From IMG/VR virus record IMGVR_UViG_2880384115_000007: a DNA stretch of 39,952 nt; one strand, given 5' to 3'. The translations under genes were made by a program, and so were the position numbers. The DNA is from a virus. Its lineage: Duplodnaviria > Heunggongvirae > Uroviricota > Caudoviricetes. Of the stretch, positions 1 to 39,952 are shown piece after piece (position 1 is the first letter of the stretch; each line of letters opens with the position of its first letter). A model generated the notes under the pieces. The model did not search any database, was not told the origin of the DNA, and saw only the letters and a program-made list of their open reading frames with translations.

Positions 1-516
1 ATGAAATTTAAAAAATGTCTTCTGCCTGTGGCAATGTTAGCGTCATTCACTCTGGCAGGATGCCAGTCAAATGCTGATGATCATGCCGCCGATGTTTATC
101 AAACCGATCAACTGAATACCAAACAAGAAACTAAAACCGTTAATATTATTTCCATTCTTCCCGCAAAAGTTGCCGTAGACAACGCCCAAAATAAACGGAA
201 CGCACAAGCCTTCGGCGCGCTTATTGGCGCTGTCGCTGGCGGTGTTATCGGCCACAACGTCGGGTCTGGCAGCAATTCCGGAACGACGGCAGGTGCAGTT
301 GGCGGCGGAGCTGTAGGCGCGGCAGCGGGTTCTATGGTGAATGATAAAACCTTAGTGGAAGGTGTTTCTTTAACATATAAGGAAGGCACCAAAGTGTATA
401 CCTCCACCCAAGTGGGTAAAGAGTGCCAGTTTACGACAGGTTTAGCCGTTGTTATTACCACGACGTATAACGAAACGCGTATTCAGCCAAATACCAAATG
501 TCCTGAAAAGAGCTAA
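1..516 (+). CDS. Glycine-zipper lipoprotein (YcfJ-like); probable host flanking gene
   Basis: ATG at position 1; signal peptide with lipobox LAGC; Gly/Ala-rich run GALIGAVAGGVIGH typical of glycine-zipper lipoproteins; lies beyond the phage lysis end. Confidence 0.55.
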   Translation: MKFKKCLLPVAMLASFTLAGCQSNADDHAADVYQTDQLNTKQETKTVNIISILPAKVAVDNAQNKRNAQAFGALIGAVAGGVIGHNVGSGSNSGTTAGAVGGGAVGAAAGSMVNDKTLVEGVSLTYKEGTKVYTSTQVGKECQFTTGLAVVITTTYNETRIQPNTKCPEKS

Positions 517-531
517 TAATCAGGAGGAGTC

Positions 532-1071
532 ATGAAGAAAGTTTTTCTTTGCGCCATCTTAGCCTCCTTAAGCTATCCGGCTATCGCCTCATCATTGCAG
601 GATCAACTCTCGGCTGTCGCAGAAGCGGAACAGCAAGGTAAAAATGAAGAGCAAAGGCAGCATGACGAATGGGTCGCGGAGCGCAACAGGGAAATCCAGC
701 AAGAGAAGCAACGTCGCGCAAACGCCCAGGCCGCGGCTAATAAAAGAGCGGCAACGGCAGCAGCGAATAAGAAAGCTCGTCAGGATAAACTGGACGCCGA
801 AGCCACTGCGGACAAAAAACGCGATCAAAGTTATGAAGATGAGCTACGTAGCTTAGAGATTCAGAAACAAAAACTGGCGCTGGCGAAAGAAGAAGCCCGC
901 GTTAAGCGCGAAAACGAATTTATCGATCAGGAACTGAAGCACAAAGCTGCGCAAACCGATGTGGTGCAATCTGAAGCTGACGCAAACAGAAATATGACTG
1001 AAGGCGGTCGCGATCTGATGAAAAGCGTGGGTAAAGCAGAAGAGAATAAATCAGATAGCTGGTTTAACTAA
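532..1071 (+). CDS. Secreted, highly charged coiled-coil protein of unknown function; probable host gene
   Basis: AGGAGG RBS upstream of ATG 532; N-terminal signal peptide; K/E/R/Q/A-rich helical sequence; strong terminator downstream. Confidence 0.5.
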   Translation: MKKVFLCAILASLSYPAIASSLQDQLSAVAEAEQQGKNEEQRQHDEWVAERNREIQQEKQRRANAQAAANKRAATAAANKKARQDKLDAEATADKKRDQSYEDELRSLEIQKQKLALAKEEARVKRENEFIDQELKHKAAQTDVVQSEADANRNMTEGGRDLMKSVGKAEENKSDSWFN

Positions 1072-8175: not shown

Positions 8176-8468
8176 GCTCTTTTTCTGAATGATAGCCATT
8201 CGAAAAATGATGACATTCCACCGCAGACAATAGCAAAGATGATCCCACCAAAGAAGAGAAGGCCAGCCTGCCACCACTCCCACCGCCATACATCCACAGC
8301 GCCAACCATACCAACAATCGCTCCAACAAATGGAATATAGCTCACGATGAAAGCAATGGGGGCTGCAATTATCCAGTGCAATCCCCACCATGATTCAAGC
8401 CCAGCCATAATTGCTGCCAACTGAAAAAGACCAACGACGATATAAACAATGAATCCTATAGCTTGCAT
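8172..8468 (-). CDS. Small integral membrane protein (hypothetical; superinfection-exclusion candidate)
   Basis: 98 aa, almost entirely hydrophobic with Trp-rich loops; AGGTGA RBS; sits between internal virion genes and the moron island. Confidence 0.5.
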   Translation of the reverse strand: MQAIGFIVYIVVGLFQLAAIMAGLESWWGLHWIIAAPIAFIVSYIPFVGAIVGMVGAVDVWRWEWWQAGLLFFGGIIFAIVCGGMSSFFEWLSFRKRA

Positions 8469-8663
8469 GTAGTCACCTATTTACCCAGTAAAAATCAGAG
8501 GCCTCCCCTCAATAAGGCTTGCAACAAGAACTACTCCCTGCACAACAAAGATGAACCAGCAAATAGCTTGAGTCTGAGGGTTAAGAAAATATTTGTAGCG
8601 GTCAATAAATAACAGCCCACCAGAAATTATCACACTCAAAATAATTAAAAACACAACACTTCC

Positions 8664-11138
8664 TTATTGCGGAGTGACATCCTGAGGTCGCCACCAGTAT
8701 GTCTGGTTAAACTCTTTCTTCGAACGTTGCTCCATTTTACGCAAATAGCCTGGTGAAAAATACTCCTGCATCTGGTTAAAGATCATGTGATCAAGAGCTG
8801 CCTTCAAGTACCAGAGATTCGCACCTGGCATCAGCCCTTTCCCAAGTTTCACCAGATCACCACCAGTCTGCTCGTTCTTCCCTTCCACAGCATTTAATGG
8901 TATGCCCTGAGCTATCTTCACTACGTCATCAACCAGGCCAGCTACCGGGCCAAGCATCGACGCCAGCGCGCCGCTTCCGTACCTAGTGTGATCTGACAAT
9001 AAAAAGTCACCGTAAAGGCCAAGACCACCACCTTTCAGTAGAGCACCAAGCCAAAATTTAGCAGCATCTTCTCCTGTCATCTCGCGAGGATTACGACCAG
9101 ACGCAAGGTCGTTAAGTTGCTGCGACAAAGCGCCAAGAATGGTCGTACTGGCAATAAACGTCGCAATATATGCCGCACGCCCACCAGCAGACGGCATACC
9201 CATAGCGCGTGACCAGTGACGCATAACCACCGAGATAGGGAACGATTTAAACAGGAAAACACTTCTCGTTAATTCACCTTTCCATGTTCCACGCTGAATA
9301 CCAGAACCGGTTATCAGTTGCTCACGTGCTCCCGGTGTAATAACAGCCATATCAACTTCTTCAGTTACGGCACCGAGCAGTTTACGCATTGCCTCAAATT
9401 TCACGCGTTCAGGCTCACCAAGATGTTTAACTGCTGAATCAGGGATACGCATAATGCTTTCCGGTGTCAGCATCGTATTATTACCGTTCCCCCAGTCCTC
9501 CTGTTGCGCCAGCTTCCATACGCTCCAGTCTGTGTCAGTAATCCCTTTACTTTTCAGGATACGAAAATCAGAGTCATCGAGGCTACGAAGGTCTGGTGTC
9601 CGTGACACTACTTCTCCCAGGCTTCCCATCATGGTTACGCCATAGGCGCGCTTGTGCGCATCTGACCATGCTGTAAGCCCACTGGCACGCATTACCGCCG
9701 TTGCCGCCCAACGAGACACAGACGGCCCCATATTATCCATCGCCCAGCGGTTAACGCTGCCAAGTAGAGATTCCATCGCCAGGCCAGCGCGGCGCGCCCG
9801 CGCAAGCTCAGTACGGTTCGTTGGGTCCATAGCTTCAAGCTGGTTGCGGAATAACTGGTTCATTGGAAGGTTGGTCACCTTCGCAGACAGATACATGGTT
9901 CCAAGATCAGAGAACGATGATAGCAACGCGGATCCGAGTCTGCTGGCAACCAGCCAGTTGCGGATATTGTCAGACCATCGCGCGATGTGCGGATTCGCTA
10001 CAGGCTGTGTCTTTCCGGAAATAAAGTTGTACAGATTCTCTGTGTTGTTCGCCAGCCGCTCGACTTTACCGGTTTTACTCGGGTTAGCTGTTGCCGTTTC
10101 TGCCTTCACCTGATCAAGAAGAGAGCGGAAAACATGATCGGGGTTTGGGCCATATGTTTCCACCAGTGCAATATCTTTACTGATACCTTCCAGGTAACCG
10201 ACCATGATTTCCCATAGAGAGCGATCGCCATAAAGTTGCTGATATTGCAGATATGAATCTGCATCTTTGAAATGTATCTGTCGTGATGCATTACCACGGT
10301 TAGCACGTGCGCCGGAAATTCGCATGCCGGTATCAGTAAGCTTATTCAGCCCACCAGTGGCGATTGTGTTATAAGCTTCTCCAAGAAATGCAGACAACTC
10401 GGCATCGTTCATCAGTTGTCCATCGGCTCGGATATAATATTTGCGATCCAGCTTACCTATAACATCGCTAACCCACTTATCCTTTGATACCGCCCCAACC
10501 TTTTCCATAGAATGATGTTGAGGGATCCCCCAGTTTTCGAGATAGCCAATGTCCCCACCAGCATCATTAAACCGGCGGCGCAGTAGCTCTGTCACTTCTC
10601 TCCACGCCTTAGCACCTTTTCTTGCTTTAGCATTGCCAGTATTTTGCCCCCGCATTTCATATACCAGGTCACGTACGCCCGCTTCATCTTCAAACAGACC
10701 AAAAAAGCGAGGATCAACTGCTTCGAATGCCTCCTGCAATTGACTCAATGCATAATCACGGGTGGCTTTTGTTCTGGATTCAACAGAGAGGAAATTCGAT
10801 TTACCGTCTGCATTAAAAGCAATAGTACGGTTAAGAGCGCCAAGTTTCCCATCAGCCCCTTGATAGCTATTGATAAATTTATCCAATCTCTGACGTGCGG
10901 CTATAGTGAGGGCCACACGACGTTTCTTTAATGCCGCTTCTCGCTGTAATTCTTCAGATGCCAATTGTGCTGCACGATATAGCCGCTCTGATTCGGAAAG
11001 TTGTCTCCACGACATCGGGTCATCACGAGCAATAGAGCGCATATTTCGATAAATGCGGTCTTCAATGTTCTGTATTTCTCGCGCCGTTAACGTGCGCTGC
11101 GCCGCCTGCTGGACCGCTTGTATACATTCCTGTCTCAT
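8664..11138 (-). CDS. Large internal virion / DNA-ejection protein
   Basis: 824-aa ORF last in a run of three large genes after the tail tubular genes, matching the internal-core gene positions of T7/epsilon15-type podoviruses. Confidence 0.55.
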   Translation of the reverse strand: MRQECIQAVQQAAQRTLTAREIQNIEDRIYRNMRSIARDDPMSWRQLSESERLYRAAQLASEELQREAALKKRRVALTIAARQRLDKFINSYQGADGKLGALNRTIAFNADGKSNFLSVESRTKATRDYALSQLQEAFEAVDPRFFGLFEDEAGVRDLVYEMRGQNTGNAKARKGAKAWREVTELLRRRFNDAGGDIGYLENWGIPQHHSMEKVGAVSKDKWVSDVIGKLDRKYYIRADGQLMNDAELSAFLGEAYNTIATGGLNKLTDTGMRISGARANRGNASRQIHFKDADSYLQYQQLYGDRSLWEIMVGYLEGISKDIALVETYGPNPDHVFRSLLDQVKAETATANPSKTGKVERLANNTENLYNFISGKTQPVANPHIARWSDNIRNWLVASRLGSALLSSFSDLGTMYLSAKVTNLPMNQLFRNQLEAMDPTNRTELARARRAGLAMESLLGSVNRWAMDNMGPSVSRWAATAVMRASGLTAWSDAHKRAYGVTMMGSLGEVVSRTPDLRSLDDSDFRILKSKGITDTDWSVWKLAQQEDWGNGNNTMLTPESIMRIPDSAVKHLGEPERVKFEAMRKLLGAVTEEVDMAVITPGAREQLITGSGIQRGTWKGELTRSVFLFKSFPISVVMRHWSRAMGMPSAGGRAAYIATFIASTTILGALSQQLNDLASGRNPREMTGEDAAKFWLGALLKGGGLGLYGDFLLSDHTRYGSGALASMLGPVAGLVDDVVKIAQGIPLNAVEGKNEQTGGDLVKLGKGLMPGANLWYLKAALDHMIFNQMQEYFSPGYLRKMEQRSKKEFNQTYWWRPQDVTPQ

Positions 11139-11143
11139 TTAAT

Positions 11144-12946
11144 TTAACCTCTCAAGAAACACGCCACAGCGACATCAAACAGGCTGGAATCCTGTATTGC
11201 CTGCTCACTTTCCCTGTTCGCTTCATCCAGTACTTCACGCGCGCTGCGCGATTGTGGATTACCATCATCATCCAGCACGGTGATTATCATGTCAGGTGAT
11301 TCAAGCAGCGAGTCTTCAGCTATGCGCAGATCAATATCTCCTGCCTGATCCGCCATCATTTTTTGTTCTGCCTGTTGCAATATTTTATCAGGCTCAAAAG
11401 GAGCTACTTCGTCTGGCGTCCTGACCTCTGCTGTTTTATAGAATGAAACAGCCTGAGCATTAAGTTCACTTTCTGCCTGCTGTCTCCGAGCCAGTTCTGC
11501 TCGAGCTTCAAAAAACTGACCGCCAGGCTCATGCGGTGCCAACGCGTTACGAGAAAATTCCAGGCGTTCTTGTGCCTGCCGGATTCGTTGGTCAATATCG
11601 CGAAGTCTGGCCTGTTTATCTGATCGAGCACGAGACAAAGCTTTACCGCTACCGGTTGGCTCTTCTGCAAGAATTTGTGCACGCTGTTCAGTGAGATTTT
11701 CAATAATTCGTTGGCTATTAGCGATTTCAGACTGGTAAACCTGTCTATCTCCACGCGGCAAAAGCTGCGCGGCCTGTTCTTCAAGCAACCGATTTTCTAT
11801 AGCGCGCGCCGTTACTCCATCATCTACAGATGACAGAGCCTCATTAACTGCCTGAGACAGCAGACTCTTGCGCCCAGGAATTTCACTGAAAGATGCAGAC
11901 TCAACAATGCTGGCAACGTCTACAGGTCTCCCCTGGCTAACATCAGACATAGCTTTTCGCAGAGCCTGAATGTGAGAATTGCGCGAAAGCACGTTGATCG
12001 GCACGCCGGGAGAAATATCAATTTCAGCATGATGAGCGGCATTCGCCGCCAGTGCAGCATCGACATCAACTGGTGAAAAATTGGGGGTGCTTGTAGCCTC
12101 ACCGCGAGAGTTAATAAATCTGCCGACACCACCAAACGCCACCCCAAGAACAGCATCAATAGCAATTGCCTGTCGATCCAACACATCATACTGGTTAGCC
12201 ATTTCGTTATAGCCACCATCACGAAGCGTTTTTGCAGTAAGCCCACGCTGTGCCATACCGAACGCAATATTTGTACCTGCGGCATAGGCAATATCTGGCG
12301 TTGCACGTACTGCTGTTGCTGCGGCGCGTCGCACTGAACTTTCACCCGTCCGCGCAAGCTGAGCCGCCACACCTTCCGCCAGCGCACCACCAGCACGTAA
12401 CCAGAGACTCATAGGGATCAGTGTTCCGGCACCAGCAGTAATACCCTGCACTAATCCCGCTTCCTGCGCCGTCCTGAAATCAACACCCTGTGCTGTCAGC
12501 CGTTCAAACTCAGAAAAACCCTGTAGCGAAGTTACCGCCGCAGCACCTCCGACCGGACCACCGAGCGTTGTACCGATAACAGCCTGCCCGCCCATATCGA
12601 ACAACCCATAAAGAACCTGCCCGGCGGTTCCGGTTGTCGCGGCATCAGGCGTCAGCCGCTTAACCTGCTGCTCTGCTAGTTTTCTCTGCTCGGCAATGTA
12701 TGAAACTGAAGTGTCATTGAGCGAGGTGTTTTCGTTAACAAACCGAGCAATCGGGGATACGATTTTATCCATCCCTGCCCAGAGCAACTGATCTGGCTTT
12801 GCCACCAGCCCGGAGTACAAACCAGACAATGCCGCTCCTACAGCATTGTCGAAAAAACCAACATCGCTGTTAAAGCCAACTGGATTTGATGCTGCTTCGT
12901 CAAGCTGCTGATTCTGGTTTACTGGATTAAGGCCAAAGTAACTCAT
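11144..12946 (-). CDS. Internal virion / ejection protein
   Basis: 600 aa, Ala/Gly-rich with C-terminal coiled coil; overlaps the upstream gene stop. Confidence 0.55.
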   Translation of the reverse strand: MSYFGLNPVNQNQQLDEAASNPVGFNSDVGFFDNAVGAALSGLYSGLVAKPDQLLWAGMDKIVSPIARFVNENTSLNDTSVSYIAEQRKLAEQQVKRLTPDAATTGTAGQVLYGLFDMGGQAVIGTTLGGPVGGAAAVTSLQGFSEFERLTAQGVDFRTAQEAGLVQGITAGAGTLIPMSLWLRAGGALAEGVAAQLARTGESSVRRAAATAVRATPDIAYAAGTNIAFGMAQRGLTAKTLRDGGYNEMANQYDVLDRQAIAIDAVLGVAFGGVGRFINSRGEATSTPNFSPVDVDAALAANAAHHAEIDISPGVPINVLSRNSHIQALRKAMSDVSQGRPVDVASIVESASFSEIPGRKSLLSQAVNEALSSVDDGVTARAIENRLLEEQAAQLLPRGDRQVYQSEIANSQRIIENLTEQRAQILAEEPTGSGKALSRARSDKQARLRDIDQRIRQAQERLEFSRNALAPHEPGGQFFEARAELARRQQAESELNAQAVSFYKTAEVRTPDEVAPFEPDKILQQAEQKMMADQAGDIDLRIAEDSLLESPDMIITVLDDDGNPQSRSAREVLDEANRESEQAIQDSSLFDVAVACFLRG

Positions 12947-15456
12947 TGCGGAATATCTCCGGAGAATCTCTGACGCTTCTGTGTCAGATCAAGAACAACG
13001 GGAGAACCATCATCTTTTAGCAGATAACCAGTACCAAGTTTCACCAGGTACTGACTATCGCCGTAACTTTGCAAACCATACTGACCAGGCGGTGTTTTTA
13101 TCCCTGTGCCAACAACTTGTTCATTCCAAGCCTGATTAACCTGCTTATCGAATTGCTCTGCAGACATTCCCCACGGCAAAAGAACATTCCCCATTCCGTT
13201 ATAGTCATGCACGCCACCTGTAGCTACGTTAACAGCCTGTTTCCAGATATCATTGTCAATTTCGCCTGATACCACGCCTTTTTTCGCCATCACACCAGCG
13301 TAATAGTCCTTTGCGATCTCGAATGCCATTGATGCCCCCTGAGCATCACCAGCAAATGCATCCTTCACCATGTCAGAAAACTCAAGGCGAAGATCAGCAT
13401 CTTTAGGCATCGGAATACCTTTCGCGTCATCAGTACCTTTACGAGCCGCCGCGCCAGCAAGAATTGTCTGCGCAGCGGTTTCTGGAGACACGGAAACATC
13501 CGGATTAAACCAGTTTTTTTCTGCCAAAATACCACCTGGCTTATCCATCAGTATCCCGGCAACGGCAGCAGATGGAGCGTTGGCACTGATCTGCTGTAGT
13601 GCTGACATATACACCTGCCCACCACCAGTGCTCTGCCTGATGGTATCGAGATATGCTGCCTGTTGGGAAACGGGCGCATCACGAAAGAAAACACCGATCT
13701 GATTGGCCTCGTCTTTGGAAAAGAACGTCAGTGGAGTGCCATATGACTTAGCAAGGTCACTGACCTGAGCAGCACGCAAGGCAACGCTCTGTCCAAAGTT
13801 ATCCTTATTGCTCATGTCGATAGGCTTTGCCTGTCCGGCGGCAAGAGAGAACTGCACAGGATCCGACTGCCGCTGCTTTATCACCTGATTTGCAGCCGAA
13901 ACAACGTTGTCATAAAGAGCTGCGCGTGCCGCATACCCCTCCCCTGTCTCACCAGTATCCGGGCGTAATTGCTCAACATATGCTGTAATGCTGCTTGTCG
14001 GCATGTTGCGGAAAGAGCCTATATACTGTCCGGCTATCTGCGTATTTCTGAACTCGGTATATCGCAGGTTTCCTTCTCTGACGCCATAAGCTGCAATAAA
14101 ATCAGCCTCACCAGGTGGATTAGGAAATTCAACGCCACGCATATACGCAGCCGTCGCATCGCGAACCTGGCTGTCAATCATCGTTTTATATTCAGCCTGC
14201 TGCTGCCGACGCAGTTGATCCGCCTGTCGCATATAACTTGCCTGCGCCTCAGGAGATGCCGCATCGAATGCTGCATTACCAGTATAGCGTTTGGTGTTGG
14301 TTGGAATTGTTGATAAACCAAGTGCTGCACTGACACCAGCAGTTAACTGCTGATCACTGTATGGCTGGCTACCGTTCTCATGATGGATAATGGCTGCACA
14401 AAGCGCCTTCAGGGTATCAGGATTTGATGCATCGAGAGGATCATCAGCAGAAACGCCAAGTTGTTCGCACACCGCTTTGATATACGACATAGTGTCATTT
14501 TTATCAGCAGGCGGTGCCCAGCGATTAATTATCTCGCTGACGGTATCAATACCCTGCCTCTGATACGACATCAGGTTCCGCCCTAATGCACGAATCCCGT
14601 GTTCAGGTGTTTCGAATTTAGCAAATCGACCATCATCACCGGTCTGGCCTACCCACGGATTAGTTTTGCTGTATTCGAGATTTCCTGGGTTATTGTTGCG
14701 TATGCCACGGGCACGCTCGGAAGAGTCACTATCTGCTACAGCACGGCGAGCTCCAGCAGCAGTATCACTTAACTCGCCATTACTTTGGATGAATGCGGTC
14801 GCATTGTTTGCCGACCACTGGGACAATGCAGCATCAGCAACCTTCTCTTTAAACTCGATTTTCTTGGCCTGGATTTGCTCGTTGCTCCAGCCATGTGCAA
14901 CACCGTACTCCTCAATTTGCTGGAAAGTTTGCTTGTTAGCCAATACGTATGCGGCGTTGTCGCCATACAATGCTGCGGCATTTTTACCATTGTTCAGCAG
15001 TGTCGCCTGAAACTGGCCTTCTTCGTAGGCATTAATTTGCCCTATCTCGTGTCGCCCGGCCTGCGTAGTGAACTGAATGCGCTGCTGCTGCGCCTGCTGC
15101 ATGAAAGCATTACGAGCCTGTTCATCCGGCAGAGACATAGCCAGTTGTTCGACCTGAGCATCAAACTGCTGCGTATACTCATGGCCTTTTCCAATAGCAT
15201 TTTTCCCTTTCAGGTTAAGCAATCCTGTTTCAGGATTATTCAGCAGATCGCTGCTTATCTGACTGAGGTTAAGAGATGCCTCCTGAGCCAGAGCGATATT
15301 GGCACGCTGTTTTGCCTGCCCCAAAACATCAATTGCCTCTGTCCCTGCCCGAACAAAAGCATCACCAATACCTTGCTGAGAAAACGTCTGCAAGCCTGCT
15401 GACTGAACTCCACGACTCTCAACCTGACGTCCGGATACTGTTGGTACGACTGGCAT
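12943..15456 (-). CDS. Internal virion protein with conserved RNNNPGN-motif domain
   Basis: Start moved to ATG 15456 (MPVVPTV...) with GGAGG RBS and TAATG overlap with the upstream stop; conserved block ARGIRNNNPGNLEY...GIRALGRNLMSYQRQG; the track's longer N-terminus overlaps the upstream gene. Confidence 0.55.
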   Translation of the reverse strand: MPVVPTVSGRQVESRGVQSAGLQTFSQQGIGDAFVRAGTEAIDVLGQAKQRANIALAQEASLNLSQISSDLLNNPETGLLNLKGKNAIGKGHEYTQQFDAQVEQLAMSLPDEQARNAFMQQAQQQRIQFTTQAGRHEIGQINAYEEGQFQATLLNNGKNAAALYGDNAAYVLANKQTFQQIEEYGVAHGWSNEQIQAKKIEFKEKVADAALSQWSANNATAFIQSNGELSDTAAGARRAVADSDSSERARGIRNNNPGNLEYSKTNPWVGQTGDDGRFAKFETPEHGIRALGRNLMSYQRQGIDTVSEIINRWAPPADKNDTMSYIKAVCEQLGVSADDPLDASNPDTLKALCAAIIHHENGSQPYSDQQLTAGVSAALGLSTIPTNTKRYTGNAAFDAASPEAQASYMRQADQLRRQQQAEYKTMIDSQVRDATAAYMRGVEFPNPPGEADFIAAYGVREGNLRYTEFRNTQIAGQYIGSFRNMPTSSITAYVEQLRPDTGETGEGYAARAALYDNVVSAANQVIKQRQSDPVQFSLAAGQAKPIDMSNKDNFGQSVALRAAQVSDLAKSYGTPLTFFSKDEANQIGVFFRDAPVSQQAAYLDTIRQSTGGGQVYMSALQQISANAPSAAVAGILMDKPGGILAEKNWFNPDVSVSPETAAQTILAGAAARKGTDDAKGIPMPKDADLRLEFSDMVKDAFAGDAQGASMAFEIAKDYYAGVMAKKGVVSGEIDNDIWKQAVNVATGGVHDYNGMGNVLLPWGMSAEQFDKQVNQAWNEQVVGTGIKTPPGQYGLQSYGDSQYLVKLGTGYLLKDDGSPVVLDLTQKRQRFSGDIPQ

Positions 15457-25069: not shown

Positions 25070-25146
25070 GTGGTATTAGCTCAGTTGGACAGAGCAACCG
25101 CCTTCTAAGCGGTTGGTCGCAGGTTCGAATCCTGCATGCCACGCCA
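25070..25146 (+). tRNA. tRNA-Arg (anticodon UCU)
   Basis: 77-nt cloverleaf folded by hand: 7-bp acceptor stem (one GU), D-arm GCTC/GAGC, anticodon stem ACCGC/GCGGT with loop CTTCTAA (anticodon TCT), T-arm GCAGG-TTCGAAT-CCTGC, 3' CCA encoded. Confidence 0.85.
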
Positions 25147-30096: not shown

Positions 30097-30400
30097 TGGT
30101 TGCCTCCTTTGCCGGGATTTCTAACTTTTGAGTGGTTGTATCAAATTCAAACAACTTAACCACGTCATCAAACAGGACATAATCACCATCAGGATCTTCA
30201 GTCATATCTGCGCCACAATCCTGACCGCACGAGTCACAACCATCCATATCAAGCTCGTATCGCTTGAGTTTTGCGATATTTGATAAATTCAGCGCCAGTA
30301 CAGCAAGGTCATAAACCTCATCAGCGGTATACCCGGCACCATGCCCATACATTTCAATACGGGATATGATTTCTTCTACACGTTGTTTTGTGATCGTCAT
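30083..30400 (-). CDS. Hypothetical acidic protein
   Basis: 105-aa ORF with GGAAGGTGAG RBS; Asp/Cys-rich. Confidence 0.4.
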   Translation of the reverse strand: MTITKQRVEEIISRIEMYGHGAGYTADEVYDLAVLALNLSNIAKLKRYELDMDGCDSCGQDCGADMTEDPDGDYVLFDDVVKLFEFDTTTQKLEIPAKEATSEQH

Positions 30401-30926
30401 TTTTACTCACCTTCCTGTTCTTCCAGAAAAATACGCATAGCCTCAAGCATCTCTTCGGTGTCATACGGTGACAACTTGTCACGCAGGATGTGTTCAATGC
30501 TGTTAATGAATTGCGGATTGCTTTGCGTTCAATTTCAGCCAGAAAAGCATCGGTGGCTGGAGTTTCGCTGTGGTGCAGGGCATCGTTGATAATCATTGCA
30601 GCAACTCCGGCCTGCCCTGCATCCGTGACCGACACATGCTCAAGAGTTACAGCCATTGCATGTTTCAGCCCCGCATTCTCCGCTGCCAGCGCCGAAAACT
30701 TCTCGTGTGCCAACTTAACAGCTGCATCAGCCTGCTTAATTGACTCAATCGCTTTCTGCTGGTCTTCGGCCAGCGCATTAGCACGCACCAGTTGCACTTC
30801 CAGTTGCGTTGCCAAATCGCTGATCAGCTTTGCCACACTGCGCATATCAACGGCACCACATTCTGCTTTCAGTTCCGAAGCCATCTCATGCCCGGCGGCA
30901 ACTAACCCTTTGATATTACTTTCCAT
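30354..30926 (-). CDS. Hypothetical protein, possible frameshift near the 3' end
   Basis: 190-aa ORF with GAGGG RBS; last ~45 aa look non-native and overlap the next gene by 46 bp, while an alternate frame ends cleanly 2 nt before the next start. Confidence 0.4.
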   Translation of the reverse strand: MESNIKGLVAAGHEMASELKAECGAVDMRSVAKLISDLATQLEVQLVRANALAEDQQKAIESIKQADAAVKLAHEKFSALAAENAGLKHAMAVTLEHVSVTDAGQAGVAAMIINDALHHSETPATDAFLAEIERKAIRNSLTALNTSCVTSCHRMTPKRCLRLCVFFWKNRKVSKNDDHKTTCRRNHIPY

Positions 30927-32250: not shown

Positions 32251-33047
32251 GCTTCAGGGCTGTTCCAGTGCGGAACGTTGTTATCAGGTAATGTTGATTG
32301 CTTCTGTCTGCTAATCTGCAGCCGCCTTGCCAGCTTCTGCTCCCACTGTGCCTGATGGTATGCCTTACCCTCAGCCATCCAGTAAATTCTGAACTCTGCA
32401 AGTTCCTGTGCCGTTGGCAGACTGTCCAGGTAGATCCCCTGCAATGAGCTTTTCCGAAGAAAGTCATCTGATGGCTGCCATTGTTCATGCATGACAAATT
32501 TGCCTAATTGCCCTGGCCCACCAGGAGGAACAAAGTTATTCATCACGGCGTTGTTTGCGCCGGGGTCATGAGGCACAGAATCCCCGCTTTTTGTCCTGCT
32601 CTCCCTCTCTTGGTTAAATGACTGGTTATATGACTGGTTCTGGATCCCGTTTTTGGGATCATTCAACATCCCGTTTTTGGGATCATTCAACATCCCGTTT
32701 TTGGGTATATTCCCGTTTTCGGTAACATTACCGTTTTCGGGTTCATTGCCCCCCTCCCGGTTGCCTTTAATGTTCCCGTTTTTGGTTATATTAAGAGAGA
32801 AAACCCGCACTCTTTTTGTCGCTCCCTTTCTCTCTCCGGTATCTGAAATAAGCCCCATTTTCATGAGCGATATAAGCCCGGCCTGCACGGTTTTTTTATT
32901 CAGGCAAGTGTCTTTAACGAGGCGTTCTATGCTGGGGTAGCAGAGGTTATATTCATCGGCTCTGTCAGCCATCGAGAGCAGTATGAGCTTTAATGATGAG
33001 CTACCTGGATCTGTCTCCCAGGCCCAATCTGTTGCATGTCTGCTCAT
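32232..33047 (-). CDS. Replication initiator O-like protein with internal origin
   Basis: N-terminal HTH-like domain, central NGMLNDPK tandem repeat encoded by DNA iterons, C-terminal domain; GGAG RBS; precedes the P-like gene as in lambdoid replication modules. Confidence 0.6.
   Translation of the reverse strand: MSRHATDWAWETDPGSSSLKLILLSMADRADEYNLCYPSIERLVKDTCLNKKTVQAGLISLMKMGLISDTGERKGATKRVRVFSLNITKNGNIKGNREGGNEPENGNVTENGNIPKNGMLNDPKNGMLNDPKNGIQNQSYNQSFNQERESRTKSGDSVPHDPGANNAVMNNFVPPGGPGQLGKFVMHEQWQPSDDFLRKSSLQGIYLDSLPTAQELAEFRIYWMAEGKAYHQAQWEQKLARRLQISRQKQSTLPDNNVPHWNSPEAWEDFL
32644..32790. repeat. Iteron array (putative origin of replication) inside the O-like gene
   Basis: Two perfect 24-bp tandem repeats ATCCCGTTTTTGGGATCATTCAAC (32644..32691), each with an internal ATCCC...GGGAT inverted repeat, plus at least four degenerate copies; flanked by direct repeat TGACTGGTT at 32618..32640. 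Confidence 0.7.
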
Positions 33048-33062
33048 GATTAATCTCCGCTA

Positions 33063-33263
33063 TCAGCTTGAGTGTTGTGGGGAGGAATTAATCATGATCT
33101 GCTTAATCTCTGCCCTGATGCGACGGTTTGATTCCATGGTGCACTCAACACAGTGTCCGTTGTAAACCCAGCGTTCACTGTCATGTCCGTGCTTACATGG
33201 TTTTCCGGTGTAGTAGCGTTTAAGTCCGCGCTTTGCGGCATCAATACGTGTAATGATTTCCAT
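33063..33263 (-). CDS. Small Cys/His-rich (zinc-finger-like) protein in the cII position
   Basis: ATG at 33263 gives 66 aa with CKHGHDSERWVYNGHCVEC; the track's longer version starts at TTG. Confidence 0.4.
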   Translation of the reverse strand: MEIITRIDAAKRGLKRYYTGKPCKHGHDSERWVYNGHCVECTMESNRRIRAEIKQIMINSSPQHSS

Positions 33264-33372
33264 GGTAAGCCCTGTTATTAGTATTGGGATTACGGTTATT
33301 TTGTGCTGACACAAAAAAAAGATCAACCATATTTGGTTTTTTATTACCTTTAAGGTGCGAATAGATATGAAA

Positions 33373-33392
33373 AGACCGCCGGGTGGCGGTCT
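33373..33392 (-). terminator. Stem-loop downstream of the cro-like gene (possible weak terminator)
   Basis: Perfect 8-bp stem AGACCGCC / GGCGGTCT with GGGT loop; only three U follow on the minus strand, so intrinsic termination is uncertain. Confidence 0.35.
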
Positions 33393-33413
33393 ACAGAGGG
33401 GTGTAGCTGGATA

Positions 33414-33644
33414 TCATGAGTAGAAGAAGTATGCCAGTTCTGCTTTTGAGCGCAACCATTGTCTTGTTTTACAGGCTTTAAAAAGCCCATTCATCAATAC
33501 TTTACCTGGCATTTTGCGCTTACCTGTTAAGTGAGTCTGGATATAGTGACTCGTCGTTCCGGCTTCCTGTGCGAAGGCTTCACGCTCATCCGGAGTAAGT
33601 GCAAGCCAGTGCTTTTTGAAATCGAAATGTCCGTTATCGCTCAT
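33414..33644 (-). CDS. Cro-like small regulator (putative)
   Basis: 76 aa, divergent from the CI-like gene across a 154-bp region with three operator dyads, followed by a stem-loop and the O/P genes; call rests on position, no sequence match to known Cro. Confidence 0.45.
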   Translation of the reverse strand: MSDNGHFDFKKHWLALTPDEREAFAQEAGTTSHYIQTHLTGKRKMPGKVLMNGLFKACKTRQWLRSKAELAYFFYS

Positions 33645-33680
33645 AGCTATTGCCTGATATTTATTTCAGATAATAAATAT

Positions 33681-33743
33681 TCACCCATAAGGTAACAAAA
33701 ATCAAGGATAGTTACCTATGAGGTGCATTTACCCGTTGGGTAA
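33681..33743. promoter_or_regulatory. Tripartite operator region between cI-like and cro-like genes
   Basis: Three dyads with identical 5-bp spacing: TCACC-N5-GGTAA (33681..33695), TTACC-N5-GGTGC (33712..33726), TTACC-N5-GGTAA (33729..33743). Confidence 0.6.
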
Positions 33744-33798
33744 TATTGCTTTAAATTGAATCATCTACTGATTCATATATGAGGCGATTTTCCAGAAA

Positions 33799-34383
33799 AT
33801 GAAAAGTATCCAGGACGTCCGCAGGCAAAATCTCAACGACTTGATCGACCGTGAATTCAATGGTGTTCAGACGCGGATGGCAGAAAAACTTGGAACTCAG
33901 GCAAATCTGGTAAACCGCTGGGCTCTTGGCAAGAAGGTTATCGGCGACCAGGTTGCGCGAAAAATTGAAGCTGCCGCCAATAAACCACGTAACTGGCTTG
34001 ATATCGATCGCTCGCTTTCTCAGGAAGGTTTTCAGCCTGTCGGCCCAAGCGACATTGGTCAGCTGGCGGCTCACAACCTGGAACGCTGGATGAGCGAAAG
34101 CCGCGACCTTTCAACACAGGGAAAACTTCACCGCGCATCCGGCGTCGCCCAGGTGACAATCAGCCGCCTGTTAAACAATGAGGTCAGCGTTTCCATTTCC
34201 ACCCTGGAGAATGTTGCATCCGCATTCGGGCGTCACGGCTATGAATTACTGATTCACCCGCACGACCCTGCGACCATCAACTATGACCGCTCGCGCTACG
34301 CATTGTTACCCGAAACCGAGAAAGCAAAGATCGAAAGTTATATTGAATTTGTCATCAACCAGAACGAAAAAAACAAACAATAA
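33799..34383 (+). CDS. CI-like prophage repressor, two HTH domains, no S24 peptidase domain
   Basis: N-terminus (MKSIQDVRRQNLNDLIDREFNGVQTRMAEKLGTQANLVNRWALGKK) resembles phage CI-repressor HTH domains; second HTH-like segment (VAQVTISRLLNNEVSVSISTLENVA); no Ala-Gly / Ser...Lys autocleavage module. Confidence 0.65.
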   Translation: MKSIQDVRRQNLNDLIDREFNGVQTRMAEKLGTQANLVNRWALGKKVIGDQVARKIEAAANKPRNWLDIDRSLSQEGFQPVGPSDIGQLAAHNLERWMSESRDLSTQGKLHRASGVAQVTISRLLNNEVSVSISTLENVASAFGRHGYELLIHPHDPATINYDRSRYALLPETEKAKIESYIEFVINQNEKNKQ

Positions 34384-34403
34384 AATCATACTTTTCAGTA
34401 AGT

Positions 34404-34428
34404 AAGCCGCCTTCTGGCGGCTTTTTTA
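34404..34428 (+). terminator. Rho-independent terminator after the repressor gene
   Basis: GCCGCC-ttct-GGCGGC followed by six T. Confidence 0.75.
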
Positions 34429-34440
34429 TTGCCTATACTA

Positions 34441-34517
34441 TTACCTAATGGGTAATTTTTTTAACTCATATCTATTGACATCAAACCAAATACGCATAAT
34501 TATTACCTCAACGGTAA
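34441..34517 (+). promoter_or_regulatory. PL-like early promoter with two operator dyads
   Basis: Dyads at 34441..34455 and 34503..34517 bracket a consensus -35 TTGACA (34475..34480); the second dyad sits where the -10/+1 is expected. Confidence 0.55.
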
Positions 34518-34536
34518 CAGACCGAGGTAACAAGTT

Positions 34537-34689
34537 ATGCAGTGGAAAATCATCAACGGTTGGTACTGCGTTACTGCATGCGGATTCATGAGCTGGAAGT
34601 TCCGCACCTTACAGGAAGGCATTAAGTGGGCTTTCGTCAGCAAAGAAGCTCGCGATGTGGCCAACGATAACGAGATATGGGAGGGCTGA
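34537..34689 (+). CDS. Small hypothetical protein, first gene of the early plus-strand operon
   Basis: 50-aa ORF (MQWKIINGWYCVTACGFMSWKF...) with GAGG RBS; not in the supplied track because it is under 60 aa. Confidence 0.3.
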   Translation: MQWKIINGWYCVTACGFMSWKFRTLQEGIKWAFVSKEARDVANDNEIWEG

Positions 34690-34691
34690 TA

Positions 34692-34991
34692 ATGAACGTT
34701 AATCAGCAGAAAAATCTTCAAAAAATCATGCTGGCATTCGACAAGGACTACCGCCTGTCAGAACAGCTATATGACCGACAAGTTGAACTGATCGAGAGCA
34801 TCCGGCTTCATCAACTGGCCTCAACTTTTGACGCTGTAACAGGCAAAGGAGTTCGCCAGGAAGTGCTGGAGGCAGCTAAAGACAGCCATGAGTTCGAAGA
34901 ACTTATGGATGCCTACCGGCGCGAGGCAATGGCAATTATCGCCCGCTGGGATCTGGCGGATCGGATTGATGGGCAGAGGGAAGCGGCATGA
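34692..34991 (+). CDS. Hypothetical protein
   Basis: Start placed at MNVNQQ (ATG 34692), directly after the upstream small ORF stop; about 99 aa helical protein; coupled to the exonuclease gene. Confidence 0.45.
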   Translation: MNVNQQKNLQKIMLAFDKDYRLSEQLYDRQVELIESIRLHQLASTFDAVTGKGVRQEVLEAAKDSHEFEELMDAYRREAMAIIARWDLADRIDGQREAA

Positions 34992-35809
34992 AACCGGGAA
35001 TTTATTTCGACATCAGCAACGAAGACTACCACGCCGGTGACGGCGTGAGTAAGTCGCAACTGGACATGGTTGCCAAGAATCCGGCGCTTCTTAAATGGGT
35101 TCAGGCAGCACCAGAAGACGAAGAGAAAAAGTCTGCACTGGATATGGGAACCGCATTGCACTGTCTGCTTCTGGAGCCTGGAGAATTCGACAAACGCTTC
35201 ATTGTTTCACCGAAGTTCGATCGTCGGACAAAACAAGGTAAAGCTGACGAAGAAGCATTTCTTCGTGATGTGGCGGATATGGGTATTACGGTACTTGATG
35301 TCGAGCAGTGGCGAAAACTGGAGCTGATGCGTGATAGCGCAATGGCTCATCCGGCGGCACGCTGGATGCTGGAAGCACCTGGTTACTGCGAAGCATCAAT
35401 GTACTGGAACGATGAAGAGACGGGTGAGTTGTGCCGAATTCGTCCAGACAAATGGCTGAACGAGCACAACGTGATCGTCGACGTGAAAAAGGTTGCAGAT
35501 ATGGACCGTTTTGCACGCCACATCGAGGAATTCCGCTACCACGTGCAGGACGCAATGTACCGCGAAGGCGCAATGAGGGTTACTGGTCAGCCGCATGGTT
35601 TTTTCTTTCTTGCCGTCAGCGAAAGCATTGATTGTGGTCGGTATCCGGTACGCGTGTTCGAGCTGGATGCGCCAGATGTCGATGCCGGGCACGCTCTGTT
35701 CCGCCGGGATCTGAATACCTATCACGAATGCCGCATCAACGATGAATGGGGCGGAGTGGAAATTATTAAACGCCCTGACTGGGCACGTAAACAGGATATG
35801 TACGTATGA
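34988..35809 (+). CDS. PD-(D/E)XK exonuclease (RecE/YqaJ-like recombination exonuclease)
   Basis: 273 aa with nuclease-like D...E.K spacing; immediately upstream of and coupled to recT. Confidence 0.55.
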   Translation: MKPGIYFDISNEDYHAGDGVSKSQLDMVAKNPALLKWVQAAPEDEEKKSALDMGTALHCLLLEPGEFDKRFIVSPKFDRRTKQGKADEEAFLRDVADMGITVLDVEQWRKLELMRDSAMAHPAARWMLEAPGYCEASMYWNDEETGELCRIRPDKWLNEHNVIVDVKKVADMDRFARHIEEFRYHVQDAMYREGAMRVTGQPHGFFFLAVSESIDCGRYPVRVFELDAPDVDAGHALFRRDLNTYHECRINDEWGGVEIIKRPDWARKQDMYV

Positions 35810-36687
35810 GCAATGATATCGCAATCACATCACAACCAGGCGCAACTGTAGGCACTGCTGCGGCAATCTTCAGCCCCGAGGGCATGAATCAACTGGTGCG
35901 TTTCGCTGAGTTGATGTCACAAAGCAAAGCGACTGTACCGAAACATCTTGAAGGCAAACCTGCCGATTGCCTGGCGGTGACCATGCAGGCGGCACAGTGG
36001 GGAATGAACCCTTTCGCCGTGGCGCAGAAAACGCATGTGGTAAACGGAACGTTAGGCTACGAAGCACAGTTGGTAAACGCGGTCGTATCCTCTTCCAGCC
36101 TGCTAGCGACACGCCTGAATTATCGCTGGAGCGGTGACTGGTCGAATGTTAACGGCAAAACAGATAAATCACCGAATCTGACGGTAACTGTGTCAGCAGT
36201 CCTTAAAGGAGAAGCAGAACCACGTGAGCTTACCATCAGTATGGCGCAAGCCGGAGTGCGTAACTCTCCATTGTGGGAACAGGATCCGCGCCAGCAACTT
36301 GCCTATCTTTGCACGAAACGATGGGCTCGCCTGCACGCTCCTGATGTACTTCTTGGTGTTTACACCCCTGACGAATTACAGGAAACGGCACCGCGCGTTG
36401 AGCGAGACATTACTCCGCAAACAACTACTGCTGCGGGAATGAACAGTCTGATCAACGCTAAACCAGTGAAAAAGCCTGATGAGCAAACGCGTAAAGCGGA
36501 TAGCCGTGATCCAGAAGAAATGCTGATGGCCTTTACCAGCGCAGCGATGAATTACAGCACTGTCTCCGAACTGGATAAGGCTTACAAATACATTGCACAA
36601 AAACTTTCAGATGATGACGAACTGCTGGCAAAAGCCACCGACGTTTACAGCGTTCGTCGGGAAGAATTAAACGAAACATCTATGTAA
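35806..36687 (+). CDS. recT: RecT-family single-strand annealing recombinase
   Basis: 293 aa; paired with an upstream exonuclease; composition and length consistent with RecT-family proteins. Confidence 0.65.
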   Translation: MSNDIAITSQPGATVGTAAAIFSPEGMNQLVRFAELMSQSKATVPKHLEGKPADCLAVTMQAAQWGMNPFAVAQKTHVVNGTLGYEAQLVNAVVSSSSLLATRLNYRWSGDWSNVNGKTDKSPNLTVTVSAVLKGEAEPRELTISMAQAGVRNSPLWEQDPRQQLAYLCTKRWARLHAPDVLLGVYTPDELQETAPRVERDITPQTTTAAGMNSLINAKPVKKPDEQTRKADSRDPEEMLMAFTSAAMNYSTVSELDKAYKYIAQKLSDDDELLAKATDVYSVRREELNETSM

Positions 36688-36736
36688 CCACCACCGCGGC
36701 GCCACACGCGCCGCACTGCAACCAAGAGAGGTATTT

Positions 36737-36985
36737 ATGAAAGGTGCATTAGGTAAGAAGGAACTCCTGGCGGTGGTGCCACTGTCATGGAGCACTATCG
36801 ACCGTATGGAGCGCGCAGGGGAATTTCCTAAACGCTGGTATATCACTGACAAACGCTGCGCATGGAACCGTGACGAAGTTGAGCGTTGGCTTGATGAACG
36901 TCAGGCAGCAAGCCCGGCAGAGTTCCAGGGTAAAAAACCTCCTGTTCAGCAACGTGTATATCGTCCCGTGAGCAACGCTGCATGA
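36737..36985 (+). CDS. AlpA-family DNA-binding regulator / excisionase-like protein
   Basis: 82 aa with AlpA-like pattern (LLAVVPLSWSTIDRMERAGEFPKRWYITDKRCAWNRDEVERWL); AGAGAGG RBS. Confidence 0.6.
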   Translation: MKGALGKKELLAVVPLSWSTIDRMERAGEFPKRWYITDKRCAWNRDEVERWLDERQAASPAEFQGKKPPVQQRVYRPVSNAA

Positions 36986-37094
36986 GTGCGCTGCTAAGGC
37001 ACTGGATCAAATGGTCAGGATGGTACTTATTCCTGGCCTCTGTTTCAGCATGGCTTTATCTGCTGGCATTAATTTTCAGAGAGGGTTGGATTAA

Positions 37095-37394
37095 GTGAGA
37101 AAGTTAAGCCGACTTGAAAAATATCACATGAATAAGGTTTCAATGCGCAGTCCGTCAAAGATTGTCGCCGTTACTCCTGCGGCGATAGAGATCGAAAAAC
37201 GCGCGATTGAAAGAGAGAAAAAAGGGCAGTTCCGCATTGCCGCCCACCTTTGGCTTCAGTGTATGGATGTTGCTTCTGGTGATGTTGAACGTGCAAGGAT
37301 CGCGATTCTCAGGGACCAATGTATCACAAAAGGTAACGGACTTCGCCGTGGCGACTATAGCGGCATAGGATGTTGTGGGGTGGTTTATGACTAA
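37095..37394 (+). CDS. Hypothetical small regulator (weak PerC-like resemblance)
   Basis: 99 aa, GTG start with GAGGG RBS; segment FRIAAHLWLQCMDVASGDVERARIAILRDQCI loosely resembles PerC-family activators; low confidence. Confidence 0.3.
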   Translation: MRKLSRLEKYHMNKVSMRSPSKIVAVTPAAIEIEKRAIEREKKGQFRIAAHLWLQCMDVASGDVERARIAILRDQCITKGNGLRRGDYSGIGCCGVVYD

Positions 37395-38037
37395 GAAATA
37401 CACACTAATCTATGCAGATCCACCCTGGGCATACCGGGACAAAGCCACAGATGGTAATCGCGGTGCCGGTTTTAAATATCCGGTTATGAGTGTGCTGGAT
37501 ATCTGCCGCCTTCCTGTGTGGGATTTGGCCGGTGAAAACTGTCTGTTGGCCATGTGGTGGGTGCCAACACAACCACTCGAAGCACTAAAAGTTGTTGAAG
37601 CCTGGGGATTTCGTCTGATGACGATGAAGGGCTTCACGTGGATAAAATGTGGTAGTCGACAACCAGATAAACTGGTTATGGGTATGGGACACATGACTCG
37701 CGCCAATAGTTAAGATTGCCTGTTTGCGGTAAAGGGAAAACTACCTACGCGCATTAATGCAGGGATCGTTCAGTCATTTACCGCACCGCGGCTTGAGCAT
37801 TCAAGAAAGCCAGATATCGTTCGTGAAAAACTTGTGCAATTATTAGGCGATGTTTCTCGCATTGAACTGTTCGCCCGCCAGACGTCTCATGGCTTTGATG
37901 TTTGGGGTAATCAGTGCGAAGACCCGGCAGTGCAACTACACCCTGGATACGCGTTGGATATTGGCGGATTAACAAATGCATTCAGCAATGCTCCGCTGTC
38001 ACCAATAGACAACCAGGGGCGGGAGCGTGCAGCATGA
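37387..38037 (+). pseudogene. N6-adenine DNA methyltransferase (MT-A70-like, DPPW motif) interrupted by an in-frame TAA
   Basis: N-terminal part has YADPPWAY; TAA at 37711..37713; conserved C-terminal half continues in the same frame to 38037 (…CLFAVKGKLP…RLEHSRKPDIVREKL…[19 protein letters not shown]). Confidence 0.7.
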
Positions 38038-38693
38038 GCCTATATCAACGCATCAATGGCGCTGACTGGTGCAATATCTTCGTCGTCGGCGATCTGCATG
38101 GGTGCTACACGCTGCTGATGAACGAACTCGACAAAGTTTCATTCGACCCGGCGCGCGATTTACTTATTTCCGTTGGTGACCTTGTTGACCGCGGCGCTGA
38201 AAACCTCGAATGCCTGGATTTGATTACTATGCCGTGGTTCCGAGCTGTTCGTGGCAACCATGAGCAGATGATGCTGGATGCACTGGTCAACGGCGGAAGT
38301 TTCGGACATTGGATGTCAAACGGCGGTGGATGGTGGCACCAACTTGATTCTGAGCAGGATGTGCAAATCAAATACCTTCTGCCAAAGATTGCCAACCTCC
38401 CGATGATTATCGAACTGGTTACCGGCAATAAGAAGGTCGTCATCTGTCACGCAGACTACCCGCACAACGAATACGCATTCGATAAGCAAGTACCAGAAGA
38501 AATGGTGATATGGAATCGTGAGCGGGTTAGCGACGCGCAGGACGGTATTGTCTCGGAGATAACCGGTGCCGATTTGTTCATCTTCGGTCATACGCCAGCA
38601 CATCACCCACTGGTGTATGCAAACCAGATGTACATCGACACCGGCGCAGTGTTCTGCGGAAATCTGACGCTTATCAAAGTCCAGGAAGGATAG
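38034..38693 (+). CDS. Serine/threonine protein phosphatase (lambda-phosphatase-like metallophosphoesterase)
   Basis: Start at ATG 38034 overlapping the methyltransferase stop; metallophosphatase motifs GDLHG, GDLVDRG, GNHE. Confidence 0.75.
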
Positions 38694-38695
38694 AA

Positions 38696-39952
38696 TTATT
38701 TATTACTGTCTTCCATCCACTTCTCAAACTTCGACGGGGAGAACGGAATCAGATCCGTATGCTCCCCGTCAATCCAGGAATCAATCATATCTGCCCACTG
38801 CTGCAACATGTAGGCGCGCTGTCTGGCGTATTCCGCTTTGTTATATACGGCGCGCACACCTTTCTGCTCATGTGCCAGAGCCTTTTCAATCCAGTCTGAA
38901 GGATAACCAGCCTCATGCAACAACGTACTGGCTGTACGGCGCATATCGTGTACGGTGAAGTCCTGAATATGCTCACCATCTTCATTTATTATTTTCACCG
39001 TTCTGTCGATCAGAGAGTTCAACGCGGCATTAGATAATGGCTTCCGGAAATTGTAACGACCAGGAACCAGGTATTCACTTCCACCAGCGCACATCTGCAA
39101 CCCAACCAATATATCCTGTGCTTGTTTAGGCAGGTAAATAACGTGCGCCCGGCTTCCCTTCATGCGGCCTGAAGGAATTGTCCATGTCCATTTTTTAAAA
39201 TCTATTTCATCCCACGTTGCATTGGTGAATTCGCCTTTACGAACCATAGTGATAAGCACCAGCTTTAAAGCCATTTTCATAGTGCCCATAGCACCAATGG
39301 CATCCAGCGTGCGGAAGAACAGACCAATTTCTTCTGGTGTCAGTGTTCGCTCTCGTGGTTTAAATATGGCGATAGACGAAGGTTTAATGTCAGCAGCAGG
39401 ATTAAACAAACCATGACCACGGTCATTGGCGTGACGGTATACGCTGCTGATGATCTCCCTGGCCTGTACTGCTGTTGCCCGACCACCGCGTTCGACAATC
39501 CGGTCACACAAATCACGAACCATCGATGTGGTAATTTCAGCCATCATTTTGTTGCCAAGAACCGGAAGTATGTCACGGTCGATCACCGCCTGCTTCATTG
39601 CGCGGGTACTTTCAGCCAGGATGACGTGTTTCATATAACTGTCGGTATGTACCGCAAACGTCTCGGCACCACGAATCTTTTTGATACCGTCACGTTTAGC
39701 CGCAGCCGGCGACTGGCCTGCTTTAAGCAGCTTCTTTGCAGCAATCAGTTCTTCTCGCGCTTCTGCCAGGCTGATACCGTCACGCCCATACTGCCCGATT
39801 ACCAGTGTTTCGCGGCGACCGTTGATACGGTAGTCATAGCGAAACGAGACCGTACCTGACGTAAGCACAGCTACATACAGCCCGTCACGATCGGAAACTT
39901 TGTACAGTTTGTCCTGTGGCTTGAGGTTTTTTAATTTTGTATCGGTAAGCAC
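38696..39952 (-). CDS. int: Tyrosine integrase, P4-like family (N-terminus at the window edge)
   Basis: 418 aa; N-terminal arm domain (LTDTKLKNLKPQDKLYKVSDRDGLYVAV) and C-terminal catalytic domain (…HDMRRTASTLL…ALAH…VYNKAEY); ORF begins with GTG at the last window base so the true start may lie outside. Confidence 0.85.
   Translation of the reverse strand: MLTDTKLKNLKPQDKLYKVSDRDGLYVAVLTSGTVSFRYDYRINGRRETLVIGQYGRDGISLAEAREELIAAKKLLKAGQSPAAAKRDGIKKIRGAETFAVHTDSYMKHVILAESTRAMKQAVIDRDILPVLGNKMMAEITTSMVRDLCDRIVERGGRATAVQAREIISSVYRHANDRGHGLFNPAADIKPSSIAIFKPRERTLTPEEIGLFFRTLDAIGAMGTMKMALKLVLITMVRKGEFTNATWDEIDFKKWTWTIPSGRMKGSRAHVIYLPKQAQDILVGLQMCAGGSEYLVPGRYNFRKPLSNAALNSLIDRTVKIINEDGEHIQDFTVHDMRRTASTLLHEAGYPSDWIEKALAHEQKGVRAVYNKAEYARQRAYMLQQWADMIDSWIDGEHTDLIPFSPSKFEKWMEDSNK

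Follow-up and report, generated by a model that had tools for sequence, protein, structure and literature searches.

A prophage MT-A70-family methyltransferase gene interrupted by a single, probably recent nonsense mutation

The stretch of viral DNA analysed here (39,952 nucleotides, hereafter the window; IMG/VR record IMGVR_UViG_2880384115_000007) carries on its plus strand a 651-nt MT-A70-family methyltransferase gene (37387..38037) that is interrupted by one in-frame stop codon, and we consider it highly probable that a recent, strain-specific G-to-T nonsense mutation has inactivated this otherwise intact E. coli prophage gene. According to the explanation that we favour, a G-to-T transversion at position 37711 would have converted codon 109 from GAA (Glu) to TAA, and translation would end after 108 residues, giving a product that keeps the DPPW motif, is missing the latter half of the methyltransferase domain and would be inactive as an enzyme. 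The 3' half of the gene would then persist as an untranslated remnant, probably with a slight loss of fitness for the lysogen. We regard this as an ordinary event of an already understood kind, namely the knockout in a single strain of a common and already annotated prophage gene.

The frame-1 translation of 37387..38037 reads MTKKYTLIYADPPWAY...GMGHMTRANS*DCLFAVKG...EHSRKPD...GRERAA*, where the premature stop is the TAA at 37711..37713 and the terminal stop is the TGA at 38035..38037. An initial annotation of this DNA had described a methyltransferase split by a single in-frame TAA, and both the coordinates and the frame that it gave are correct by the sequence and its translation. The truncated 5' part (37387..37713, plus strand) consists of 108 codons plus the premature TAA and includes DPPW at residues 11-14, and the orphaned 3' part (37714..38037, plus strand) continues in the same frame through codons 110-216, with EHSRKPD at residues 137-143. 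The intact gene starts in RefSeq at the ATG at 37387. For the truncated ORF an alternative start, GTG 37375, appears in the list of open reading frames and yields a product of 112 aa.

Domain searches were made with the Pfam MT-A70 model (PF05063), which has a length of 172 positions and a cut-off of 23.9 bits. The N-terminal half scored 36.2 bits (HMM positions 1-83) and the C-terminal half 28.2 bits (HMM positions 102-172), each above the cut-off alone, and the protein repaired with Glu at codon 109 scored 78.4 bits over HMM positions 1-172 of 172 (protein residues 5-176). Because both halves match MT-A70 on their own and the repaired protein matches in full, we are dealing with one interrupted gene and not with a chance pair of ORFs. 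NCBIfam returned no model naming the methyltransferase. That both halves are intact, as had been claimed from the sequence alone, is upheld by these separate matches and by the undecayed state of the downstream half: the 3' part is sequence-identical to the intact allele of strain 4/0 and carries no further decay.

The repaired protein displays the features of the family, with DPPW (catalytic motif IV) near the N-terminus and EHSRKPD further C-terminal, both of which align with Tetrahymena AMT1; METTL3 chains match the same region. The alignment to the Tetrahymena MT-A70 structure protein covers residues 3-171, and Glu109 is placed opposite the Glu of 'KESCLIGVKG' in the Tetrahymena MT-A70 protein 7f4r. 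A functional member of the MT-A70 family requires an uninterrupted ORF across the full domain, and in the window this ORF is broken by the TAA at codon 109. The window allele is best described as a putative pseudogene of the MT-A70 family, apparently of the simple nonsense type and with no other lesion. Its 108-residue fragment retains DPPW and would be without about half of the catalytic domain, from which a complete loss of enzyme activity is predicted.

The state of codon 109 before the change can be read from relatives. Searched by megablast against 5,426 complete E. coli genomes, the locus gave 622 records, and three E. coli orthologues (AR_0055, 4/0 and Ecol_AZ146) are annotated in RefSeq as one 651-nt CDS, 'MT-A70 family methyltransferase'. 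When aligned, all three show GAA (Glu109) at the place of the window's TAA, and the only difference between the window and the gene of strain 4/0 is G37711T. The proposal that one base change at the first position of the stop would restore a sense codon is therefore sound. A recent nonsense mutation had been the first of three options offered in the initial annotation, and it is the one favoured by the evidence, that is, by the orthologues, the single-base difference and the undecayed 3' half. The comparison with orthologues that it had called for showed one 216-codon ORF in which this codon is GAA, and related phages likewise carry one ORF here, not the two separate ORFs that it had named as the contrary outcome.

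We then find the intact and interrupted alleles very unevenly recorded. The 61-mer with GAA is matched exactly in 192 records among the complete E. coli genomes, and the TAA-centred 61-mer in none of the 422 matching records of the same set. At least 120 IMG/VR contigs contain the GAA 29-mer, and the TAA 29-mer is absent both from IMG/VR and from the JGI metagenome contigs. The exact repaired 216-aa protein is encoded on 207 contigs and belongs to a cluster of 2,905 members, and the isolated phages HEMP4 and Phi05_1999 B possess methyltransferases 96-98% identical to it. Neither allele was found among the GTDB representatives (one genome per species, searched with a probe carrying N at the mutated base); these representatives do not contain the exact sequence and are not informative on either allele. 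Taken from the sequence records, the mutation appears to be very recent and strain-specific, recorded from one sequencing run (ERR1618244), on which a literature search returned no paper.

Among the 120 IMG/VR loci listed, 108 have an undisrupted 651-nt ORF, which occurs in 83 different nucleotide sequences. Pooled over the loci listed, pN/pS came to 0.23 for the whole gene, with 0.14 in codons 1-108 and 0.31 in codons 110-216, and these low values in both parts indicate that the intact gene, including the part that now lies 3' of the stop, is kept by selection. Of the IMG/VR relatives sampled, about 2% have a disrupted allele; a stop replaces Trp73 in the methyltransferase of one locus (L102), and that of another (L115) is frameshifted after Lys-Gly 117. 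In the protein clusters, 89 short N-terminal forms are grouped together, versus 2,905 full-length variants. Among these short forms are a frameshifted product of 124 aa on 27 contigs, a form of 120 aa on 5 and a form of 118 aa on 2; for some of the short forms, the end of the contig may be all that truncates them. Sporadic loss appears to be normal for this gene, and the window allele would be one more independent knockout. The start region also shows minor variation among relatives: in three IMG/VR loci (L103, L113 and L085) the first methyltransferase codon is not ATG and the start is shifted by one codon (T-M-K-K-Y), and other IMG/VR relatives begin with MSKKY or MNKKY.

The alternative that survives best is that a sequencing or assembly error produced the stop, in which case the true genome would read GAA and the gene would be intact; we consider this unlikely. 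The TAA allele is a singleton, found on one contig and with no exact match in the complete E. coli genomes, IMG/VR or the metagenome contigs, and G-to-T is a known oxidative-damage artefact of library preparation, both of which count in favour of an error. Such damage artefacts are, however, of low frequency and do not reach the consensus base. Moreover, an exact-product look-up placed the truncated 112-aa product on exactly one contig, Logan ERR1618244_74 (the 108-aa product from the ATG start gave no exact-product match, the gene caller using GTG 37375). This contig of 42,905 bases is 100% identical to window positions 32676..39952 (7,277 bases), with the same T, and it starts inside the window and extends into guaA and guaB. 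Since it begins inside the window, it stems from an assembly separate from the window's own, and a separate assembly with the same base makes an assembler artefact unlikely. In addition, of the AR_0055 prophage proteins with an alignment in the window, only the methyltransferase meets an internal stop, so errors are not widespread in the window assembly. If the Logan contig and the window share reads, an assembler artefact is still excluded, and a mutation in laboratory culture or a systematic library error is what would be left to consider. All told, we see only a slight chance that an error or a culture artefact lies behind the T, and the error option of the initial annotation loses most of its force given the identical base in the Logan contig from ERR1618244.

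A second alternative accepts the mutation as real and holds that the loss was adaptive, having been selected in the lysogen through changed prophage behaviour, for example less spontaneous induction. It draws on the closest characterised homologue of the window gene, gp5 of phiPA8 (M.EcoPA8orf6770P), which is 84% identical over residues 1-187, a span that includes DPPW and Glu109. In the Stx2a phage phiPA8, gp5 raises spontaneous Stx-prophage induction and virulence, and in phiPA2, where the homologue is naturally disrupted by IS629, both are lower (PMC10810198). Independent knockouts also recur among the relatives of the window gene. On the other hand, the TAA allele is known from one run only, with no clonal expansion, the intact relatives are under purifying selection, and PNB-2, the partner needed by the phiPA8 mechanism, is absent from the whole window (tblastn, E up to 1). 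For an accessory gene, a frequency of about 2% for disrupted alleles appears to be in keeping with mutation and drift. We hold adaptive loss to be highly improbable, and note that a singleton allele is in itself uninformative on neutral versus selected loss. Although speculative, a knockout of this PerC-linked variant might be non-neutral and retune induction or host translation, with the recurrent truncations reflecting selection in lysogens; this too we judge very unlikely.

Downstream of the stop, the first canonical in-frame start is GTG 37834, with no Shine-Dalgarno sequence before it. A restart product from this codon would be without EHSRKPD, the protein collection contains no such 67-aa product, and in the 3' part no gene is called on the Logan contig and no long ORF appears in the list for the window. 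That the stop is bypassed by low-level or programmed UAA readthrough, or that the enzyme is reassembled from N- and C-terminal fragments, has in its favour that both halves remain intact and in frame, yet we give it practically no weight: TAA is conserved in no relative, the tRNA search found no suppressor tRNA in the window (its sole tRNA is Arg-TCT), the residue replaced is a conserved Glu, and the C-terminal half has no start codon before GTG 37834. The suggestion of low-level readthrough in the initial annotation is thus unsupported, and a recent nonsense mutation remains the reading that we prefer.

The methyltransferase gene is preceded by a gene for a PerC-family small regulator (37095..37394, plus strand; Pfam PerC, 26.4 bits, and RefSeq orthologue annotation), homologues of which start in RefSeq at either 37095 or 37143; its stop and the methyltransferase start share 8 nt (ATGACTAA). 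It is followed by a gene for a serine/threonine protein phosphatase (a metallophosphoesterase of 219 aa; 38034..38693, plus strand; Pfam Metallophos, 57.9 bits, and RefSeq), which matches NCBIfam PRK11439 and PRK09968 below cut-off. A convergent tyrosine integrase gene (38696..39952, minus strand) then forms the prophage end adjoining host guaA. The phosphatase and integrase proteins are each 100% identical to their AR_0055 counterparts, and in this integrase context the methyltransferase is an accessory gene near the attachment site. The PerC-family gene was considered as a PNB-2 partner and rejected, as the two products have no similarity and PNB-2 is absent from the window. In Serratia phage BZS1 a small 'ANR family transcriptional regulator' (L127, 11704..11886) directly precedes a GATC-specific MT-A70 gene. 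The PerC-family protein has no pairwise similarity to this ANR-family protein and reaches only a weak, sub-threshold 21.6 bits against the ANR profile (cut-off 32). Phage MT-A70 genes may in general be accompanied by a gene for a small partner or regulator upstream.

The methyltransferase had also been proposed to be translationally coupled to the phosphatase. The ATGA overlap on which such coupling would depend is present (phosphatase ATG at 38034..38036, methyltransferase TGA at 38035..38037), but dependence of the phosphatase on it is unproven, as this gene has its own GGGAG Shine-Dalgarno sequence 8 nt upstream. No promoter-like or terminator-like sites were found in 36600..38900, and the untranslated 320-nt stretch contains no C-rich, G-poor (rut-like) segment, its C/G ratio lying between 0.78 and 1.0. 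Given the phosphatase's own Shine-Dalgarno sequence, the lack of rut-like bias and the lack of promoter-like or terminator-like sites, strong polarity on the phosphatase is not predicted, and its translation is probably lowered modestly at most.

The window starts with host yfgH and yfgI (1..1071) and extends precisely to the start codon of the integrase gene. This host-gene start, together with the extension of the Logan contig into guaA and guaB, indicates that the prophage fills the yfgI-guaA interval, as in AR_0055. In AR_0055 this site is occupied by a prophage of about 39 kb that encodes a core protein of the T7 gp14 family, a gp10 'capsid staple' and a cement protein of the Bbp16 type, and we take the prophage to be an epsilon15-like podovirus. 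Apart from the methyltransferase gene it looks intact and is probably functional. The right-hand 25 kb are 99.4-99.6% identical to AR_0055, the closest prophage. The block of tail or injection proteins at about 8180..15040, by contrast, does not match AR_0055 at the nucleotide level, and protein identities there reach only 23-69%; this is a mosaic module exchange. A hypothetical gene at 30354..30926 (minus strand) contains a 190-aa ORF, and its 174-aa AR_0055 homologue aligns in two frames with the junction near 30500, a frame difference that gives the hypothetical protein an alternative C-terminus. The tRNA-Arg gene (anticodon TCT, for the rare AGA codon; 25070..25146, plus strand) is located between the portal and terminase regions and is annotated in AR_0055 as well.

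With respect to the activity that was lost, the initial annotation spoke of a DNA adenine methyltransferase, a label that holds at the level of the family. Adenine-N6 methyltransferase is a safe designation; 'DNA' is unproven, the 84% identical homologue having been reported to act on 16S rRNA. Specifically, phiPA8 gp5 together with PNB-2, the product of the gene upstream, is reported to prefer 16S rRNA in 30S subunits (PMC10810198). M.EcoGV, which is similar to phiPA8 gp5, methylated DNA at GATC when overproduced (PMC10810198). Further away, PhiBZS1_p32 of Serratia phage vB_SspM_BZS1 shares 40% identity with the repaired protein over 206 residues and has the same conserved motifs, and its GATC specificity on DNA was established by restriction-protection assay (PMC7556043). 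Homology to PhiBZS1_p32 and M.EcoGV suggests that the intact enzyme might methylate GATC, and DNA is likely to be its substrate. GATC itself is not depleted in the window (151 sites observed, 155 expected).

Should the enzyme be specific for GATC, a dam+ E. coli that lost it would show hardly any change in methylation; the loss would be nearly silent, and this would be consistent with sporadic knockouts being tolerated. In annotations the locus is to be entered as a pseudogene, neither as two ORFs nor as a case of recoding. The singleton allele could also be put to use as a natural knockout with which to probe the PerC-linked, PNB-2-less MT-A70 variant, the questions being whether GATC in DNA or 16S rRNA is the target, and what effect the enzyme has on spontaneous induction.

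For comparison with known systems, the closest are the RefSeq proteins WP_000163441.1 (strain 4/0) and WP_088251335.1 (AR_0055) from E. coli epsilon15-like prophages, which represent the same gene at the same locus. The order of PerC-family gene, methyltransferase, Ser/Thr phosphatase, convergent integrase and guaA is common to these prophage loci and the window, and their alleles are intact at 216 aa, whereas the window allele ends after 108 aa. The phiPA8 gp5 gene is, like the window gene, a prophage accessory gene near the integrase end. It differs in that the C-terminal ~29 residues are unrelated, the alignment ending at residue 187, and in that PNB-2 is encoded upstream of the enzyme in phiPA8, where the window has the PerC-family gene. 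Of the components of a phiPA8-type holoenzyme the window locus therefore has the gp5-like catalytic subunit, and the adjacent PNB-2 and the gp5-type tail are missing. PhiBZS1_p32 is likewise a phage gene product encoded close to an integrase, but it is much more distant from the window protein than is phiPA8 gp5 and has a 23-residue insertion; together with M.EfaBMDam of Tn1549 it belongs to the beta-class, MT-A70-family, GATC-specific DNA methyltransferases. Finally, Tetrahymena AMT1/MTA1 (7f4r, 7f4l) and human METTL3 (5il0 and others) match at the level of the fold over residues 3-171. This eukaryotic match is remote (E-values of 6e-13 and 2e-5), and those enzymes are heterodimers acting on eukaryotic DNA or mRNA; even so, AMT1 keeps both the DPPW motif and the Glu that the window allele has lost to its stop codon.
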